Made by a program: the position numbers and the translations under genes. A stretch of DNA of 64,000 nt from Escherichia coli (lineage in GTDB: Bacteria > Pseudomonadota > Gammaproteobacteria > Enterobacterales > Enterobacteriaceae). Location: the NCBI RefSeq assembly GCF_050320075.1, contig NZ_CP190022.1; one strand, 5' to 3'. Shown in pieces: positions 47,693-51,754 of this stretch. The notes beneath the pieces are model-generated. The model ran no database searches, had not been told where the DNA came from, and saw only the letters and a list, made by a program, of their open reading frames with translations. Within the stretch, counting starts at the first letter, position 1; each line of letters starts with the position of its first letter.

Positions 47693-50600
47693 TCATCGGC
47701 CGGGGCTGTGAGATTGTGCCTGTTGCAGAGTTTTTTCCTGCCTGTCCTCCGCCTTTTGGCTGTCAGACCACTCTTTCCAGGTCTGCTCAAAACCCAGAGA
47801 GCGGAAAAGCTTGTCCGGCTGCTCTTCCGGTTTATGGATGGCGGCAAACAACGGCGTATCCTGTTGCTTCAGGTGAAACTGCATCATTTGTGGGGCCGGA
47901 CGCTGATGAGTATTCTCATCGTGGTTGACAGCTTCACCGTAGCCGGCAAACTGCAGACCGTTATCCGTCAGTGCATTGATGACCAGCTGACGGTTGTTTG
48001 TTGTCGGGGTGGCCAGTGCCGGGTAGAGGGTGCCGTTCAGACGGACCACTCCCTGCAGATGCTCATCTGCGCTGTGGACCAGCAGAAGATTCAACTGACG
48101 ATTGTCCTTATCGGCGGAGGCGACGGCAGGAATCAGTTCATCGGGGGCTTTACCAGCGAGGGGGAGTCGCATTGATTGATCCTGAGGTTCTGATGCCGGT
48201 TGTCTGTCCTCACCAATGTACAGATTATTGGGAGGATTTTTGGGGGAACGAACTTCCTGCATTATCTGTGGCCAGTGTTGCTGCATTTGTGACATTACCT
48301 GACTGAATGTTTTCATCGGAAATTCCAGGATATGCTGACCAGCATGAGGAAGGTCATTATCGACGGTAATGCCGTTACTGACAGGAGTCATGGCCCAGAT
48401 ATTTCGCACCCATTCCGGTTTGCCCGGTGATGAAGGTAATCTCTCCCGGGCCTGCAATGTCAGCGTGACGGGGTCGCCTTTCTGGTGGTTTTTGACCAGT
48501 TCTTCCAGGCCTTTTCCCCAGTATTCCCGTTTGCCACTGCGGTTGGTGAGCTCCACAAAAAAGCAGCGCCCTTTTCCGGGCGCATACTCTTTTTCTCCGT
48601 AGTTTGTCAGGACGGCAGTCACACTTTCACCGGGGCTGAGCTTGCCGGGCGGCTCTTCCTCCGGTGTGTCGGGTTGCTGCGGCTGTGCACTGACAGGGGC
48701 TTTTTCTGGCGCTGACGACGGGGCGGCTGGTTGTTCCGGTCTGTCGGCCCGGGGGGCTTCAGCTTTTGCCGTGACCGGCGCTTCCGGATGCGGTGTTTCA
48801 GCCGTACTGCCTGCTGTTTGTTCAGCCTCTGCCTTCGGTGACACAGGGGGTTCCGGTTGTGCCATTGTTGTTTCTTCCGGTGACTGGCGGTTGAGTTCCG
48901 GCGTGGGTCTGTGGGTGACAATGGCATCATGCACCATCTCTTTTTCCTTGCGGAGTTTTTCCAGTGCTGCCCTCTGGGCCGGGAGTTTCATGCGAACCTT
49001 GATGTCGTATTCGACAATCAGCTGCATGGCTTTTTGTTTAAAGGCATCACTGCCGGTCAGCTCGATAACGCCGCCATAGAAGTTGGTGGCCACAGCAAGG
49101 GCAGCCAGAACCTTTTTGTCATCCGCGCTGGCACCATCCACCATTTCGAGACAATAGAGTCTGTCCAGGAAGGCTGGTTCGCCGTCAACACGGAAGAGCG
49201 CTGTCCTGTCGGGAAACTCTTCGTGCTCAAGATTTTTAATAATCTCGTCCAGGTTGTGCCGCTGCGGACTGTCGGGACGGCGGGGCGCAAAGATAATCGT
49301 GTCCGGTTCCGCTGACGATGTGTCTTCCGGGCTGTTTTCCGGTGGTGATGGTGGTGCGACCTCCTCTGTTGCTGTTTCAGCCTCCGTGGGCTTTTTCTCC
49401 TGAATAACGGAAGGTTCTGAGGTACGTGATTTCCCACCGGTCAGAAAACGGCGCAGACGGCTGAAAAGCGATGGCGTTTCAGGGTGGGCTGCTTCATTCG
49501 CTGTGCTGGTCTCAGTGGCAGACACAGGACGCTCTTCCTGCAGTTTATCTTCAGCCGTCGGTTCAGCGGTGGCCTGCCGGACTGGCTGAGTTTCTGCAGG
49601 TTCAGAAGGTGAGGCTGTTTCTGCTGTGCCGGTGTTGTGAACAGCAACCGTGGCATCGGCATTGAGCTCCTCAGCGGGTGCGTTCCTGTTGTCATCGGTG
49701 ATGTCAGAGGAGTTCTCTGCGCCGGTCTCAGCGGCAGACGCAACGCTCTTTTCCTGTGCTTTATCTTCTGCCGTCAGTTCAGTGGTCACCTGCTGAACTG
49801 GCCGCATCCCGGCCGGTTCAGAAACTGTGTTTGTCTCCGCGTTGTCGGTGTTGTGAACAGTGGGGGCCCCCGGAGTGTCAGCGTTGAGATCTTCCGCAAA
49901 TGCGCTCCAGTCGTCAGCGGTGGCCATGGAGACCTGCACTTGTTCTTCAGACTGCGTTGTGGTGGAGTGCTGTATCCCGGCCGCGTCGGAGAGGGAGGTT
50001 TCCGGTGTGTCTTCACTCCGGGGATGTTCTTCTGCCTGCGTGCTCTGGTTGTCAGCGGTGGTGGCAGAGGCTTTTTCTTCACCGGTATCAGCGGTAGCCA
50101 CAGAGGCATTTTCTTCCCTGGTATCGGCAGCGGAAACAACGTTCTCGTGTGGTTTATCTTCTGCGGTCGGTTCAGTGGTTGCCTGCTGCACGGACTGCAT
50201 CCCGGCAGGTTCAGGAAGCGTTCCTGTTTCTGCTGTGTTGGTGTTGTGAGCGGTGTCTGTACCTGTGGCGTCTGTATTGAGGTCTTCCTGGTCGCCAGCG
50301 GTAGCCGCAGAGGTATTCTCTGTGCCGGTATCAGCGGCAGACGCAATATTCTCCAGTGGTTTATCCGGGGATAACGTCTCCGTAGTTACTGACTGCAGGG
50401 ATGCATAGGCGGCATAGTCATCTTCATATGCCTGGTTTTCTGTCTCTTCAGTGTGGATGTCATAAGGCGTATCCGGTGTCGCCAGCACCGTTTCCGGGGC
50501 TGTGCTCTGTTTGTTTTCAGGGGACATTTGTGGCTTCTCATCTTTTACCGGTGTGAATATCAGGTTGCCGATCACGACAGCTTCACGGTGGTCGGCAGTG

Positions 50601-51754
50601 TCACTGTTGGGTGTGGGGATACCGATATGTTTTAACTGTGCGTTCATGACATGCTGAAAGTCGTCCCGTCCCCGGCTGGCGTCCAGGTCATTGAAATCGG
50701 TCAGTCCCTGTGCTTTTTCCTCCTCCGTAAAGGCCGGAATAATGACTTCGCCATTCGTGACTTCTGCGGCTTTTGTTGCACTAAAAACCCCCTTGTTAAT
50801 TTCCCGTTGATGATCGTTGTCGGCACAGAAGACAAAGGGGCTGTCAGTCCAGATTTGGCGGGCATTTTCTGCCACGGCAATCATATTGCCGGCATCAACT
50901 GTCATCAGAACCGGAAGGCCGGTGGCTTCGTGCAGGGAGGCGGCAGTAGCGTAACCTTCCGCAAATAACAGGGGACGGCCATTTTCCGGGGTTCCGAAGG
51001 TGAACCAGTTGCCGGTTTTCTCGGAGTCTTTCAGAATGCGGGCATCCTTCCCGCCGGTGACCGGAATACGCTGGTACGAACGTATTTCCCCCCGGCCGTT
51101 GCTGAAGGGAATAACCAGCTCATTTTTATTGTTCAGCCGCACGCCAGGCGCGGCCCGGATGCCCTTGCGCGTCAGGTATTCATGTGCTGTTGCCTGTGGC
51201 AACCCGTTAATATAGGAGCGGGCATACCGGGCCTGTTTGTTGTACTGTTGCTGCAGTTTACGTGCGTTATCATCGCGCTGTTGCTGAGCGAATGCCCGCA
51301 GATGCAGTCTGGCCAGAGGATCGTGTTGTTCTCCGCCGGAAAATACCCAGTTTGTGGGACTGTCATCGGCGCTCCGGTAGTCGCGGTACCAGCCAGCGGG
51401 GCGCCCATCAAGATAGGCTTTGTATGCGCCACTTTTGGCCCCTTTTTTGTCATCCCGGGTGGCGACTCTGTGTATGGCGCCATCCATCTGTGGCAATCCC
51501 TGAATAACCAGCCCGGCGTTTTCCAGGACCTGAGCAAATTCGGTGACCGGATCGCCGGCATCCATCGACAGTTCCTGCGGCCGGGGTAACCAGCGCTCCA
51601 GCAGAGAAAGTTCGGTACCTGCCCGGGCATACCAGAGTTTTTTTTCTGGATCCCATGCGACAGCTTTGCGGCCATTTAACGGGGGTACTGCATTTTTTAC
51701 GGCTTCTGTCTCCTCAGGCGGGACAGCAAGCCAGGTACGATATCTGGACTTCAT
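47693..51754 (-). CDS. sog: Conjugative DNA primase Sog (Toprim-type primase N-domain, repetitive acidic linker, C-terminal domain)
   Basis: 1353-aa product; N-terminal region has primase/Toprim motifs (EGYATAASL ... FCADNDH); lies between the traK-like and traL-like genes as in IncI-type systems. Confidence 0.75.
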   Translation of the reverse strand: MKSRYRTWLAVPPEETEAVKNAVPPLNGRKAVAWDPEKKLWYARAGTELSLLERWLPRPQELSMDAGDPVTEFAQVLENAGLVIQGLPQMDGAIHRVATRDDKKGAKSGAYKAYLDGRPAGWYRDYRSADDSPTNWVFSGGEQHDPLARLHLRAFAQQQRDDNARKLQQQYNKQARYARSYINGLPQATAHEYLTRKGIRAAPGVRLNNKNELVIPFSNGRGEIRSYQRIPVTGGKDARILKDSEKTGNWFTFGTPENGRPLLFAEGYATAASLHEATGLPVLMTVDAGNMIAVAENARQIWTDSPFVFCADNDHQREINKGVFSATKAAEVTNGEVIIPAFTEEEKAQGLTDFNDLDASRGRDDFQHVMNAQLKHIGIPTPNSDTADHREAVVIGNLIFTPVKDEKPQMSPENKQSTAPETVLATPDTPYDIHTEETENQAYEDDYAAYASLQSVTTETLSPDKPLENIASAADTGTENTSAATAGDQEDLNTDATGTDTAHNTNTAETGTLPEPAGMQSVQQATTEPTAEDKPHENVVSAADTREENASVATADTGEEKASATTADNQSTQAEEHPRSEDTPETSLSDAAGIQHSTTTQSEEQVQVSMATADDWSAFAEDLNADTPGAPTVHNTDNAETNTVSEPAGMRPVQQVTTELTAEDKAQEKSVASAAETGAENSSDITDDNRNAPAEELNADATVAVHNTGTAETASPSEPAETQPVRQATAEPTAEDKLQEERPVSATETSTANEAAHPETPSLFSRLRRFLTGGKSRTSEPSVIQEKKPTEAETATEEVAPPSPPENSPEDTSSAEPDTIIFAPRRPDSPQRHNLDEIIKNLEHEEFPDRTALFRVDGEPAFLDRLYCLEMVDGASADDKKVLAALAVATNFYGGVIELTGSDAFKQKAMQLIVEYDIKVRMKLPAQRAALEKLRKEKEMVHDAIVTHRPTPELNRQSPEETTMAQPEPPVSPKAEAEQTAGSTAETPHPEAPVTAKAEAPRADRPEQPAAPSSAPEKAPVSAQPQQPDTPEEEPPGKLSPGESVTAVLTNYGEKEYAPGKGRCFFVELTNRSGKREYWGKGLEELVKNHQKGDPVTLTLQARERLPSSPGKPEWVRNIWAMTPVSNGITVDNDLPHAGQHILEFPMKTFSQVMSQMQQHWPQIMQEVRSPKNPPNNLYIGEDRQPASEPQDQSMRLPLAGKAPDELIPAVASADKDNRQLNLLLVHSADEHLQGVVRLNGTLYPALATPTTNNRQLVINALTDNGLQFAGYGEAVNHDENTHQRPAPQMMQFHLKQQDTPLFAAIHKPEEQPDKLFRSLGFEQTWKEWSDSQKAEDRQEKTLQQAQSHSPGR
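49480..50390 (-). repeat. Imperfect long tandem repeats inside sog (acidic Thr/Ala/Glu-rich linker)
   Basis: At least three copies of a block encoding AETxTxxEPAxxxPVxQxTTEPTAEDKxxE visible in DNA and protein; boundaries approximate. Confidence 0.6.

Follow-up and report, generated by a model that had tools for sequence, protein, structure and literature searches.

The linker of a sog orthologue, encoded in the window analysed here (64,000 nt of Escherichia coli contig NZ_CP190022.1), is built from about 3.5 degenerate units of some 70 residues, which are arranged head-to-tail and in frame (49472-50392, minus strand; aa 455-761). We consider it highly probable that this region is a disordered, acidic and length-variable spacer which has grown by unit duplication and is still gaining and losing units. 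It would thus be an ordinary length-variable spacer and not a new functional element.

In the proposed scheme, the spacer would connect the Toprim primase domain at the N-terminus with the LPD7- and transfer-related part at the C-terminus in the long Sog form and would double as the N-terminal tail of the presumed SogS starting at Met410. Within the IncK/B/O/Z branch of the I-complex, it would have grown as a unit of about 69-72 aa (207-216 nt) was duplicated head-to-tail and in frame, the duplicated units flanking an older core that bears DDWSAFAEDL. The copies would since have diverged to a present protein identity of about 55%. Unequal recombination between the degenerate copies, or slippage between them during replication, would add and remove whole units as well as 12-aa mini-units, and this continuing turnover would account for circulating plasmids with two to four modules. 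The region is probably a flexible tether, for which precise length and sequence count for little.

A sog orthologue and its putative internal start

The repeats are internal to an ORF of 1353 aa (47693-51754) on the minus strand, which also carries all features given below unless the plus strand is stated. The ORF product was 100% identical to WP_096986286.1 on NZ_MG825371.1, where the annotated neighbours of the gene are homologues of traJ/traK and traL/traM. The annotated sogL on LC567050.1 occupies the equivalent slot in a traJ/traK - traL/traM layout, and tblastn against it yielded 51.2% identity over aa 3-1353 of the window ORF. A Toprim primase domain was recognised at aa 264-364 (50663-50965; Pfam Toprim_3, 28.2 bits in a scan restricted to aa 1-400, cut-off 27.2). 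The translation contains EGYATA (aa 266-271; 50942-50959), the defining motif of I- and P-type plasmid primases. The first folded domain past the linker is an LPD7 domain (aa 855-935; 48950-49192; Pfam PF18821, 37.3 bits versus a cut-off of 27). A search of NCBIfam with the whole protein retrieved no family. The gene had been called a sog primase in the initial annotation, and the slot, the 51% full-length identity to SogL, Toprim, EGYATA and LPD7 agree with that name. Judged by these sequence features, the ORF is the sog orthologue (conjugative DNA primase and transferred protein) of an I-complex plasmid of the type MPF_I, MOBP, IncK2/Z. The PGAP product names on most sampled records are 'LPD7 domain-containing protein' or 'DUF5710 domain-containing protein'; the assignment of this gene to sog is therefore of value for annotation. 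Primase activity and the transfer of Sog into the recipient are known from the literature on ColIb-P9 and R64 only (PMC8406263, PMC6112013).

Met410 (50525-50527) aligned with Met412 of SogL and is the likely counterpart of the internal in-frame start of SogS. From Met412 onward the R64-type SogL comprises exactly 844 aa, which fits the published length of SogS of 844 aa (PMC6112013). The short form predicted from Met410 has 944 aa and carries the linker at its N-terminus. Methionine was kept at position 410 in 119 of 120 close homologues; in CP057343 GTG replaces ATG, and the 40-nt upstream sequence is identical. As a ribosome-binding site, the hexamer GAGAAG upstream of Met410 matches less well than GAGGA, its counterpart in R64-type SogL. 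The SogS start may be used in this plasmid. Met610 (VSMATADDW) was rejected as an alternative internal start: IncI-gamma SogL has Val at this place, and the published length of SogS fits Met412/Met410.

Architecture and constraint of the linker repeats

The repeats had first been noted at 49480-50390 as at least three degenerate copies. Diagonals, unit alignment and a profile search resolved three full units and a partial fourth, and the unit boundaries moved the limits slightly, to those given above. R1 (aa 455-523; 50186-50392; 69 aa, 207 nt) was detected by the unit HMM with an i-E value of 9e-39 and R3 (aa 655-726; 49577-49792; 72 aa, 216 nt) with 1.8e-33. R2 (aa 524-654; 49793-50185; 131 aa, 393 nt), defined by unit alignment, is split by an insert of about 60 aa and was matched by the HMM as two half-domains, aa 524-568 and aa 600-654. 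The partial R4 (aa 727-761; 49472-49576; 35 aa) contains the head of the unit only, its match (i-E 1.4e-4) covering positions 1-28 of the HMM. The full units share 52-58% identity at the protein and 67-69% at the DNA level, and the longest exact internal repeat of the window allele measures 16 nt. Nested inside R2 is a mini-repeat of 3 x 12 aa (36 nt) at aa 541-576 (50027-50134) with the copies SAADTREENASV, ATADTGEEKASA and TTADNQSTQAEE; its period of 36 was seen in the DNA repeat families D2 and D7 and as a diagonal offset of 36. Two anchors, each found in 121 of 121 homologues, delimit the region. Directly upstream lies the acidic, Tyr-rich motif YEDDYAAYASLQ (aa 443-454; 50393-50428), while the basic amphipathic motif SLFSRLRRFL (aa 762-771; 49442-49471) ends the repeats on the C-terminal side. 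Motifs resembling the former are found elsewhere in the linkers of SogL, pWEC2 and P0122, and motifs related to the latter in SogL and P0122.

Self-comparison of the linker, which had been proposed as a check on the repeats, revealed a periodicity well beyond composition-preserving shuffles. The best 30-aa diagonals within aa 401-800 contained 21, 20, 19 and 19 identities at offsets of 131, 203, 69 and 72 aa, compared with a mean of 10.4 and a maximum of 15 in 300 residue shuffles. At the DNA level, diagonals of 71/90, 70/90, 69/90 and 62/90 were obtained at offsets of 393, 216, 609 and 207 nt, compared with a mean of 46.1 and a maximum of 52 for 90-nt diagonals in 200 codon shuffles; all of these top offsets are divisible by 3. 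An independent DNA repeat search retrieved a three-copy family of 164 nt whose members are spaced 216 and 393 nt apart. The profile of the window's three units also found the 3.5-unit layout in the independent allele CP057343 (i-E 2e-19 to 4e-5). Tandem Repeats Finder, applied to 48500-51500 with a minimum score of 30, returned 0 rows because the copies are too diverged and the second unit has a large insertion; blastp of the protein against itself gave the identity match only. 'Imperfect', the term originally chosen, is therefore apt. With no Tandem Repeats Finder rows and an exact repeat of just 16 nt, the region is not a classical VNTR or high-identity tandem array.

The linker, described at the outset as rich in Thr, Ala and Glu and placed between the primase and the C-terminal domain, lies between Toprim and LPD7 as stated, and its repeat region contains 16.9% A, 16.6% T, 12.7% E, 8.1% S and 7.5% D. 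Its 307 residues include 62 acidic and 12 basic ones, resulting in a pI of 4.05, and only one Trp and one Phe. AlphaFold2, run with an alignment depth of only 13 sequences, predicted aa 455-761 at a pLDDT of 31-36 with near-absent secondary structure, a short helix at aa 613-623 excepted; LPD7 reached 84-95 in the same model. Outside the repeats, a short helix was predicted over aa 439-454 (model residues 59-74), at YEDDYAAYASLQ, and another at SLFSRLRRFL (model residues 383-391, pLDDT about 56). A Pfam search with the linker alone found nothing at E values up to 10, and a PDB sequence search gave two chance-level matches, both outside the repeats.

Relaxed constraint accompanies the predicted disorder. 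Between the window and CP057343, dN/dS was 0.50 in the repeats and 0.16-0.26 in the folded domains, the linker value being the highest of the gene. Differences by codon position numbered 73/56/49 in the repeats, where the third-position excess was weak, versus 145/47/50 elsewhere, where it was strong. Between paralogous units dN/dS amounted to 0.28-0.45, a rough ratio because dS is near saturation. The values below 1, together with positions recurring in every unit (EP.AEDK, SA.(D/E)T, LN(A/T)DA, HNT..AET and EPA), are compatible with some selection on the unit sequence. Published IncI1 transposon data are polar on the C-terminal part of Sog and uninformative on the spacer (PMC4288162).

Length alleles and alternative explanations

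Across 121 close homologues the linker varied from 187 to 417 aa, whereas the 442 aa upstream were constant in all 121. The length polymorphism suspected in the initial annotation is thus real, and the suggested comparison of repeat number among related plasmids gave two to four modules per allele. In an even sample of 60 complete plasmids, about 16 differed in length over the linker stretch; approximately 73% of the sampled complete plasmids matched the exact length of the window, a uniformity that could stem from clonal spread or from selection stabilising the length. The common 1284-aa allele lacks 50100-50306, as became apparent when L008 was aligned to the window at the DNA level. This deletion has exactly one 207-nt unit length, falls between R1 and R2, and has its junction within the shared GGCTACCGCTG, an 11-nt microhomology. 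Smaller changes affect the mini-repeat, where alleles of 1341 and 1343 aa are without 12 aa (linker classes 295/297 versus 307), and the complete plasmid H132 is 36 nt shorter over the linker stretch. In the expanded allele there is one more unit, of 360 nt, for which identities of up to 89/90 were obtained, and an allele of 1463 aa with four modules is present on a complete IncK2/Z plasmid. Backbones are nearly unchanged: the deletion allele P0082 differed from P0016 in 1 of 1046 flanking residues, and the deletion allele P0078 from P0009 in three. All length variants stay in the reading frame. Unequal recombination or slippage is the probable mechanism.

The consequences of a repeat-built linker are chiefly practical. 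Alleles of two to four modules recurring on near-identical backbones offer a possible marker for fine-scale typing of IncK2/Z and related plasmids, by which blaCMY-2 is spread in poultry. When sog genes are clustered by length or identity, these alleles inflate apparent divergence and the splitting of pan-genomes. The natural tolerance of 187-417 aa also suggests that the linker is permissive for tags in Sog protein-translocation assays.

Several observations are compatible with a more specific role, in which each unit is a docking module, a partner (for example the type IVB coupling complex, SSB or ssDNA-handling proteins) is bound multivalently to a degree set by copy number, and the repeats are selected as repeats. 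The dN/dS between units (0.28-0.45), the sub-motifs returning in every unit, the single length of most complete plasmids and the export of many Sog copies into the recipient (PMC8406263) would all fit. We nevertheless regard this role as unlikely. The IncI-gamma (R64-type) SogL has no such unit, and the Sog of R64/ColIb-P9 is the experimentally studied type; alleles with two, three and four modules are all in circulation, some of them recorded in dozens of contigs; the dN/dS of the linker tops the gene; unrelated repeats occupy the equivalent place in other lineages; and AlphaFold2 gave the units no predicted structure.

A conserved island, ATADDWSAFAEDL (aa 611-623; 49886-49924), stands out in the insert of R2 as a candidate short linear motif. 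Its D, W and F are invariant over five I-complex lineages with otherwise barely alignable linkers, and AlphaFold2 placed the sole helix inside the repeat region here (model residues 233-243, aa 613-623). The pattern DW..F...L was present in 4 of 40 representative Sog-like linkers versus 0.055 expected from shuffles, three of the four being close relatives. A family-wide motif was rejected: among the 40 distant linkers only close I-complex relatives and one doubtful match carried the pattern. DDWSAFAEDL (aa 614-623) is the single possibly functional motif in R2 and the linker, and it provides one concrete, testable element amid an otherwise featureless linker. The linker would be active if the D-W-x-x-F helix docked to the type IVB coupling/adaptor complex or to a recipient protein, with the acidic repeats serving as a nucleic-acid mimic or entropic 'bristle', an idea to which we give little credence. 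If true, the bristle would keep Sog export-competent or, within the recipient, shield Sog or the arriving DNA, and transfer efficiency would be tuned by repeat number.

The region had also been flagged as a likely site of assembly errors. That concern is weak for the window allele, whose longest exact repeat of 16 nt is below any usual k-mer; only the expanded alleles have long exact repeats (62 nt). The deletion alleles of 1233 and 1281 aa, known from a single contig each, may be assembly artefacts. It is very improbable, however, that the polymorphism mostly stems from collapse or expansion of repeats in short-read assemblies: the 1284-aa allele was recovered from different samples, in at least 24 contigs that are independent of one another, the 1458-aa allele in six contigs of 50-200 kb and the 1463-aa allele on a complete plasmid record, and the variants all preserve the frame.

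Long alternative reading frames accompany the repeats, with stop-free stretches of 253 and 130 codons in antisense and of 199 and 110 codons out of frame in the sense direction; one antisense ORF of 245 aa spans 49637-50374 on the plus strand. Such stretches were just as common in the non-repetitive IncI-type linkers and therefore result from codon composition. The 253-codon stretch becomes 183 + 117 codons in CP057343 and 176 + 169 in the P0001 allele, and none of the alternative-frame stretches had a Pfam match above cut-off (the sole match scored 19.1 bits versus a cut-off of 33.2). The antisense ORFs were rejected as genes on these two grounds, as their earlier designation as spurious had implied, and the alternative-frame ORFs of the linker, of up to 253 codons, are not to be annotated as genes. 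The overlap of the repeats with the 253-codon antisense and three 110-199-codon alternative-frame stretches would be expected if the periodicity served an element acting as DNA or RNA, or an antisense gene overlapping sog such as the 245-aa ORF, instead of the Sog protein. We judge this extremely improbable, given that the extents differ in every allele examined, that the Pfam matches are all below cut-off, that non-repetitive IncI-type linkers have long alternative frames equally often, and that the sog frame is open over 1353 codons and conserved family-wide.

The reading that Thr/Ala/Glu bias yields chance diagonals and no true repeat exists agrees with the low complexity of the region and the blank Tandem Repeats Finder result, but it is already refuted by shuffles that kept the composition and never came near the observed values (maximum 15 versus 21/30 and 52 versus 71/90), by recovery of the layout in CP057343 with the unit HMM at i-E values down to 3e-24, and by natural indels of whole units (207 and 360 nt).

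Comparison with known systems

SogL and SogS of IncI1 R64 and ColIb-P9 comprise 1255 and 844 aa, the former being 98 aa shorter than the window protein. SogL and the window protein occupy the equivalent slot in the tra operon, are 51% identical over their full length and combine Toprim with EGYATA, LPD7 and an acidic low-complexity linker in between; the methionine of the SogS start is aligned and the DW..F motif of the linker is conserved. In contrast, the IncI-gamma (R64-type) linker examined is without internal repeats (best diagonal 13/30, no match to the unit HMM), and at about 27% identity the two linkers are barely alignable. The repeats are therefore dispensable for Sog function as such.

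The two-part architecture with a variable linker is also found in Pri of the IncM plasmid pCTX-M3, for which an internal second product was proposed (PMC6112013), and in other Sog-like primases with Toprim and LPD7. Linkers of 42 Sog-like representatives were 62-760 aa long and in every case acidic, with an abundance of A, P, T, E and S; 20 of them were built from repeats with periods of 14-191 aa. The repeat units read in other Sog-like lineages were unrelated to the window unit in sequence and period; a Klebsiella plasmid, for instance, repeats PEAAAA (6 aa), and in P0143, P0126 and P0168 the units measure about 30-33 aa. The 70-aa unit was restricted to IncK2/Z-type sequences among those searched; the unit HMM gave nothing significant against the IncI-gamma SogL, pWEC2, a Serratia homologue and a Klebsiella homologue, and the unit is therefore lineage-specific. 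A modest generalisation is that unrelated repeats are found at one inter-domain position in about half of the Sog-like primases. The openly accessible literature searched on IncK2, sogL and LPD7 conjugative primases contained no mention of these repeats.

Primases annotated as TraC are homologous in their N-terminal part, with tblastn identities of 31-37% over aa 6-388. The likeness is limited to the N-terminal 390 aa or so, and TraC belongs to the P-type transfer system. TraC of the IncP plasmid RP4 shares the EGYATA motif and has two in-frame products. Compared with classical VNTR or contingency loci, the copies in the window are far more diverged (67-69% nucleotide identity) and show no sign of rapid phase-variable switching. 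The spacer resembles generic tandem-repeat disordered linkers of bacterial proteins, whose degenerate repeats grow and shrink by unequal recombination; these likewise consist of in-frame units set head to tail, are predicted to be disordered, evolve under relaxed constraint and vary in copy number between close alleles, with junctions in microhomology.

Gene context and anatomy of the repeats

The repeats are enclosed in a single long ORF of 1353 aa (47693-51754, minus strand), which has a 100%-identical counterpart on NZ_MG825371.1 (plasmid type IncK2/Z, MOBP, MPF_I), flanked there by traJ/traK and traL/traM homologues. An IncI-gamma/K1 plasmid carries an annotated sogL in the same slot, and its SogL shares 51% identity with the window ORF over the whole length (tblastn). 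Pfam searches placed DUF5710 at aa 6-57, LPD7 at aa 855-935 and Toprim_3 at aa 264-364, the last barely over the cut-off when the N-terminal 400 aa were scanned alone; the EGYATA primase motif was read from the translation at aa 266-271. Given these domain positions, the repeats form the linker that joins the primase domain to the C-terminal part, in agreement with the initial annotation, and they are an unremarkable feature of a known gene. The sogLS genes are required for transfer in IncI1 and I-complex plasmids (PMC4288162; PMC10286972), in studies that did not address the linker. A published account of these repeats was not found in a literature search, which did not reach the older sog papers.

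The span 49480-50390, described initially as at least three degenerate Thr/Ala/Glu-rich repeats, corresponds to aa 455-759. Its translation is rich in Thr, Ala, Glu, Ser and Asp and contains the recurring strings EPTAEDK..E...SAA.T and then LNADA...HNT.TAET...EPA. A diagonal scan of aa 401-800 against itself yielded 21, 20, 19 and 19 identities in the best 30-residue windows at offsets of 131, 203, 69 and 72 aa, while the best values over all offsets in 300 residue shuffles averaged 10.4 and never exceeded 15. At the DNA level, the best 90-nt windows held 71, 70, 69 and 62 identities at offsets of 393, 216, 609 and 207 nt, each divisible by three, compared with a mean of 46.1 and a maximum of 52 in 200 codon shuffles. 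The periodicity thus exceeds chance and compositional bias. A separate repeat search detected a three-copy family of 164 nt with spacings of 216 and 393 nt. Tandem Repeats Finder reported no repeats in the region, as expected for copies that are just 67-69% identical and of which one is interrupted.

The units are arranged head to tail on the minus strand: R1 (69 aa, aa 455-523, 50186-50392), R2 (131 aa, aa 524-654, 49793-50185), R3 (72 aa, aa 655-726, 49577-49792) and R4, present as a head of 35 aa only (aa 727-761, 49472-49576). R2 is an ordinary unit split by an insert of ~60 aa, which carries a 12-aa mini-repeat in three copies (aa 541-576, period 36 nt) together with the string ATADDWSAFAEDL. 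Between full units, identity is 52-58% as protein and 67-69% as DNA, with a dN/dS of 0.28-0.45 and dS near saturation. An HMM built from the three units of the window recovered the same architecture (i-E 2e-19 to 4e-5) in CP057343, an independent allele with 84% overall identity.

The published lengths are 1255 aa for SogL and 844 aa for SogS, the product of internal in-frame initiation (PMC6112013). The R64-type SogS start is Met412 with GAGGA upstream, which aligns with Met410 of the window protein (50525-50527, minus strand), the presumed SogS start. Of 120 close homologues, 119 have Met at this position; CP057343 has GTG, which is also a start codon, and its 40 nt upstream are identical to those in the window. 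The GAGAAG preceding Met410 is a weaker Shine-Dalgarno match than GAGGA. Initiation at this codon, if it occurs, would make the repeats the N-terminal third of SogS.

Length polymorphism among related plasmids

For the window protein and 120 cluster representatives, linker length was taken as the distance from the anchor YEDDYAAYASLQ to the anchor SLFSRLRRFL. The suspected length polymorphism was borne out: linkers measured 187, 235, 238, 285, 295, 297, 307 (window), 309, 359 or 417 aa, while the part upstream was 442 aa long in every one of the 121 sequences. Repeat number varied from two to four modules per allele (counted as LNAD...EPA), and alleles differed by whole units. The 1284-aa allele, represented by 24 or more independent contigs, is missing exactly 207 nt (window 50100-50306), with the junction inside the shared GGCTACCGCTG. 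The 1458-aa allele, present in six contigs of 50-200 kb, has an additional 360-nt unit with identities up to 89/90. The complete IncK2/Z plasmid NZ_OQ534117.1 encodes an allele of 1463 aa that has four modules and in which the DDWSAF motif occurs twice, and the 1341- and 1343-aa alleles are one 12-aa mini-unit short. The deletion allele P0082 differs from P0016 at one of 1046 flanking residues; since deletion alleles occur on almost identical backbones, the events are recent and recurrent. Among 60 plasmid records taken evenly from 444 matches, 44 had the exact window length over 49300-50600, and the other 16 differed or matched partly. One plasmid match, CP048936.1 (33775-35076), is 1 nt longer over this span (1302 versus 1301 nt) and has no annotated feature there, likely reflecting a frameshift or sequencing error in sog.

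The suggestion that the repeats invite assembly errors was not supported for the window allele, as its longest exact internal repeat, at 16 nt, is not long enough to confuse an assembler; in expanded alleles, exact repeats reach 62 nt. The 1233- and 1281-aa alleles, each seen in one contig, may be artefacts.

Stop-free stretches over the repeats reach 253 and 130 codons in antisense and 199 and 110 codons in sense out-of-frame, in line with the spurious antisense ORFs noted initially. Their interpretation as real genes was rejected: their extents vary between alleles, equally long stretches occur in non-repetitive IncI-type linkers, and Pfam gave no match above the cut-off. They are by-products of codon composition.

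Disorder and conserved motifs

Acidic residues outnumber basic ones by 62 to 12 in aa 455-761 (pI 4.05), which contain a single Trp and a single Phe. In an AlphaFold2 model of aa 381-960, based on an alignment of 13 sequences, the repeats had pLDDT values of 31-36 and nearly no secondary structure, against 84-95 for LPD7. Only three short helices were predicted within aa 401-830: aa 439-454 (YEDDYAAYASLQ), 613-623 (DDWSAFAEDL) and 763-771 (LFSRLRRFL). Relative to CP057343, dN/dS was 0.50 for the repeats, compared with 0.16-0.26 for the folded parts. Counted by codon position, changes in the repeats showed a weak third-position excess (73/56/49), which was strong outside them (145/47/50). All of this is consistent with a disordered spacer evolving under relaxed constraint, best explained as an acidic tether that would have been built and resized by in-frame duplication and deletion of units.

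The dS between the window and CP057343 (locus L003) was also raised in the repeats (49472-50392), at 0.40 versus 0.17-0.23 elsewhere. Possible causes are mis-pairing of paralogous units, gene conversion between them, or import of linker segments from plasmids of greater distance; mosaic-looking alleles, P0064 for instance, agree with these readings.

Five I-complex lineages were aligned (window, CP057343, IncI-gamma SogL, pWEC2 and the 51%-identical P0122). In their otherwise barely alignable linkers, the D-W-x-x-F of DDWSAFAEDL was the only invariant motif. It lies in the ATADDWSAFAEDL island (aa 611-623, 49886-49924, minus strand), the only predicted helix within the repeat region. The island is doubled in four-module alleles and deleted from the single-contig 1233-aa allele; a motif of this type was not found in the more distant Sog-like proteins searched. 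Judging by the alignment of its surroundings in R2 with IncI-type sequence, the R2 'insert' looks like an older core around which the units may have been duplicated. The acidic, Tyr-rich YEDDYAAYASLQ (aa 443-454, 50393-50428, minus strand) has counterparts in other Sog-like linkers. The motif precedes DW..F in the window and P0122 and follows it in IncI-gamma SogL and pWEC2; this varying position suggests that short motifs were shuffled within the linker.

Comparison with other Sog proteins and relaxases

The C-terminal domain (aa 1045-1335, 47750-48622, minus strand) resembles the last ~270 aa of relaxases of the MobQ family (~42% identity, E 5e-56) encoded on mobilizable plasmids of 3.5-6.7 kb, e.g. 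WP_001029353.1 on NZ_CP100681.1. A similarity of the Sog C-terminus is already on record for MOBQ4 relaxases (PMC6856555). The common module might serve as a recruitment domain for the I-type T4SS. LPD7 and this domain are separated by another low-complexity linker, in which Pro, Ala and Glu are abundant (aa 951-1040, 48635-48904, minus strand). Its anchor-to-anchor length is 77 aa in 120 of the 121 homologues; in P0112 it is 19 aa shorter.

A family search of 1.84 billion representatives retrieved 42 proteins with both primase and LPD7 regions. Their linkers of 62-760 aa are without exception acidic and enriched in A, P, T, E and S. Internal repeats (z >= 4; periods of 14-191 aa) occur in 20 of the 42, including two fragments of the window's own type. 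The units of other lineages, among those read, bear no relation to that of the window, indicating that repeat-driven spacer growth recurs in the family. The homologues P0143, P0126, P0168 and P0124 carry unrelated tandem repeats of their own at the same inter-domain position, including units of ~30-33 aa; the 78-aa unit of P0124 looks more structured on reading. A Klebsiella plasmid homologue (NZ_CP083034.1, locus L006) has a different array at that position, with a 6-aa PEAAAA unit. The unit HMM had no match in this protein or in the IncI-gamma SogL, pWEC2 and Serratia homologues, and the 70-aa unit was confined to IncK2/Z-type sequences among those searched. The pWEC2-type and Serratia linkers are acidic without significant repeats, and the same holds for R64-type (IncI-gamma) SogL, which in this respect differs from the Sog protein of the window.
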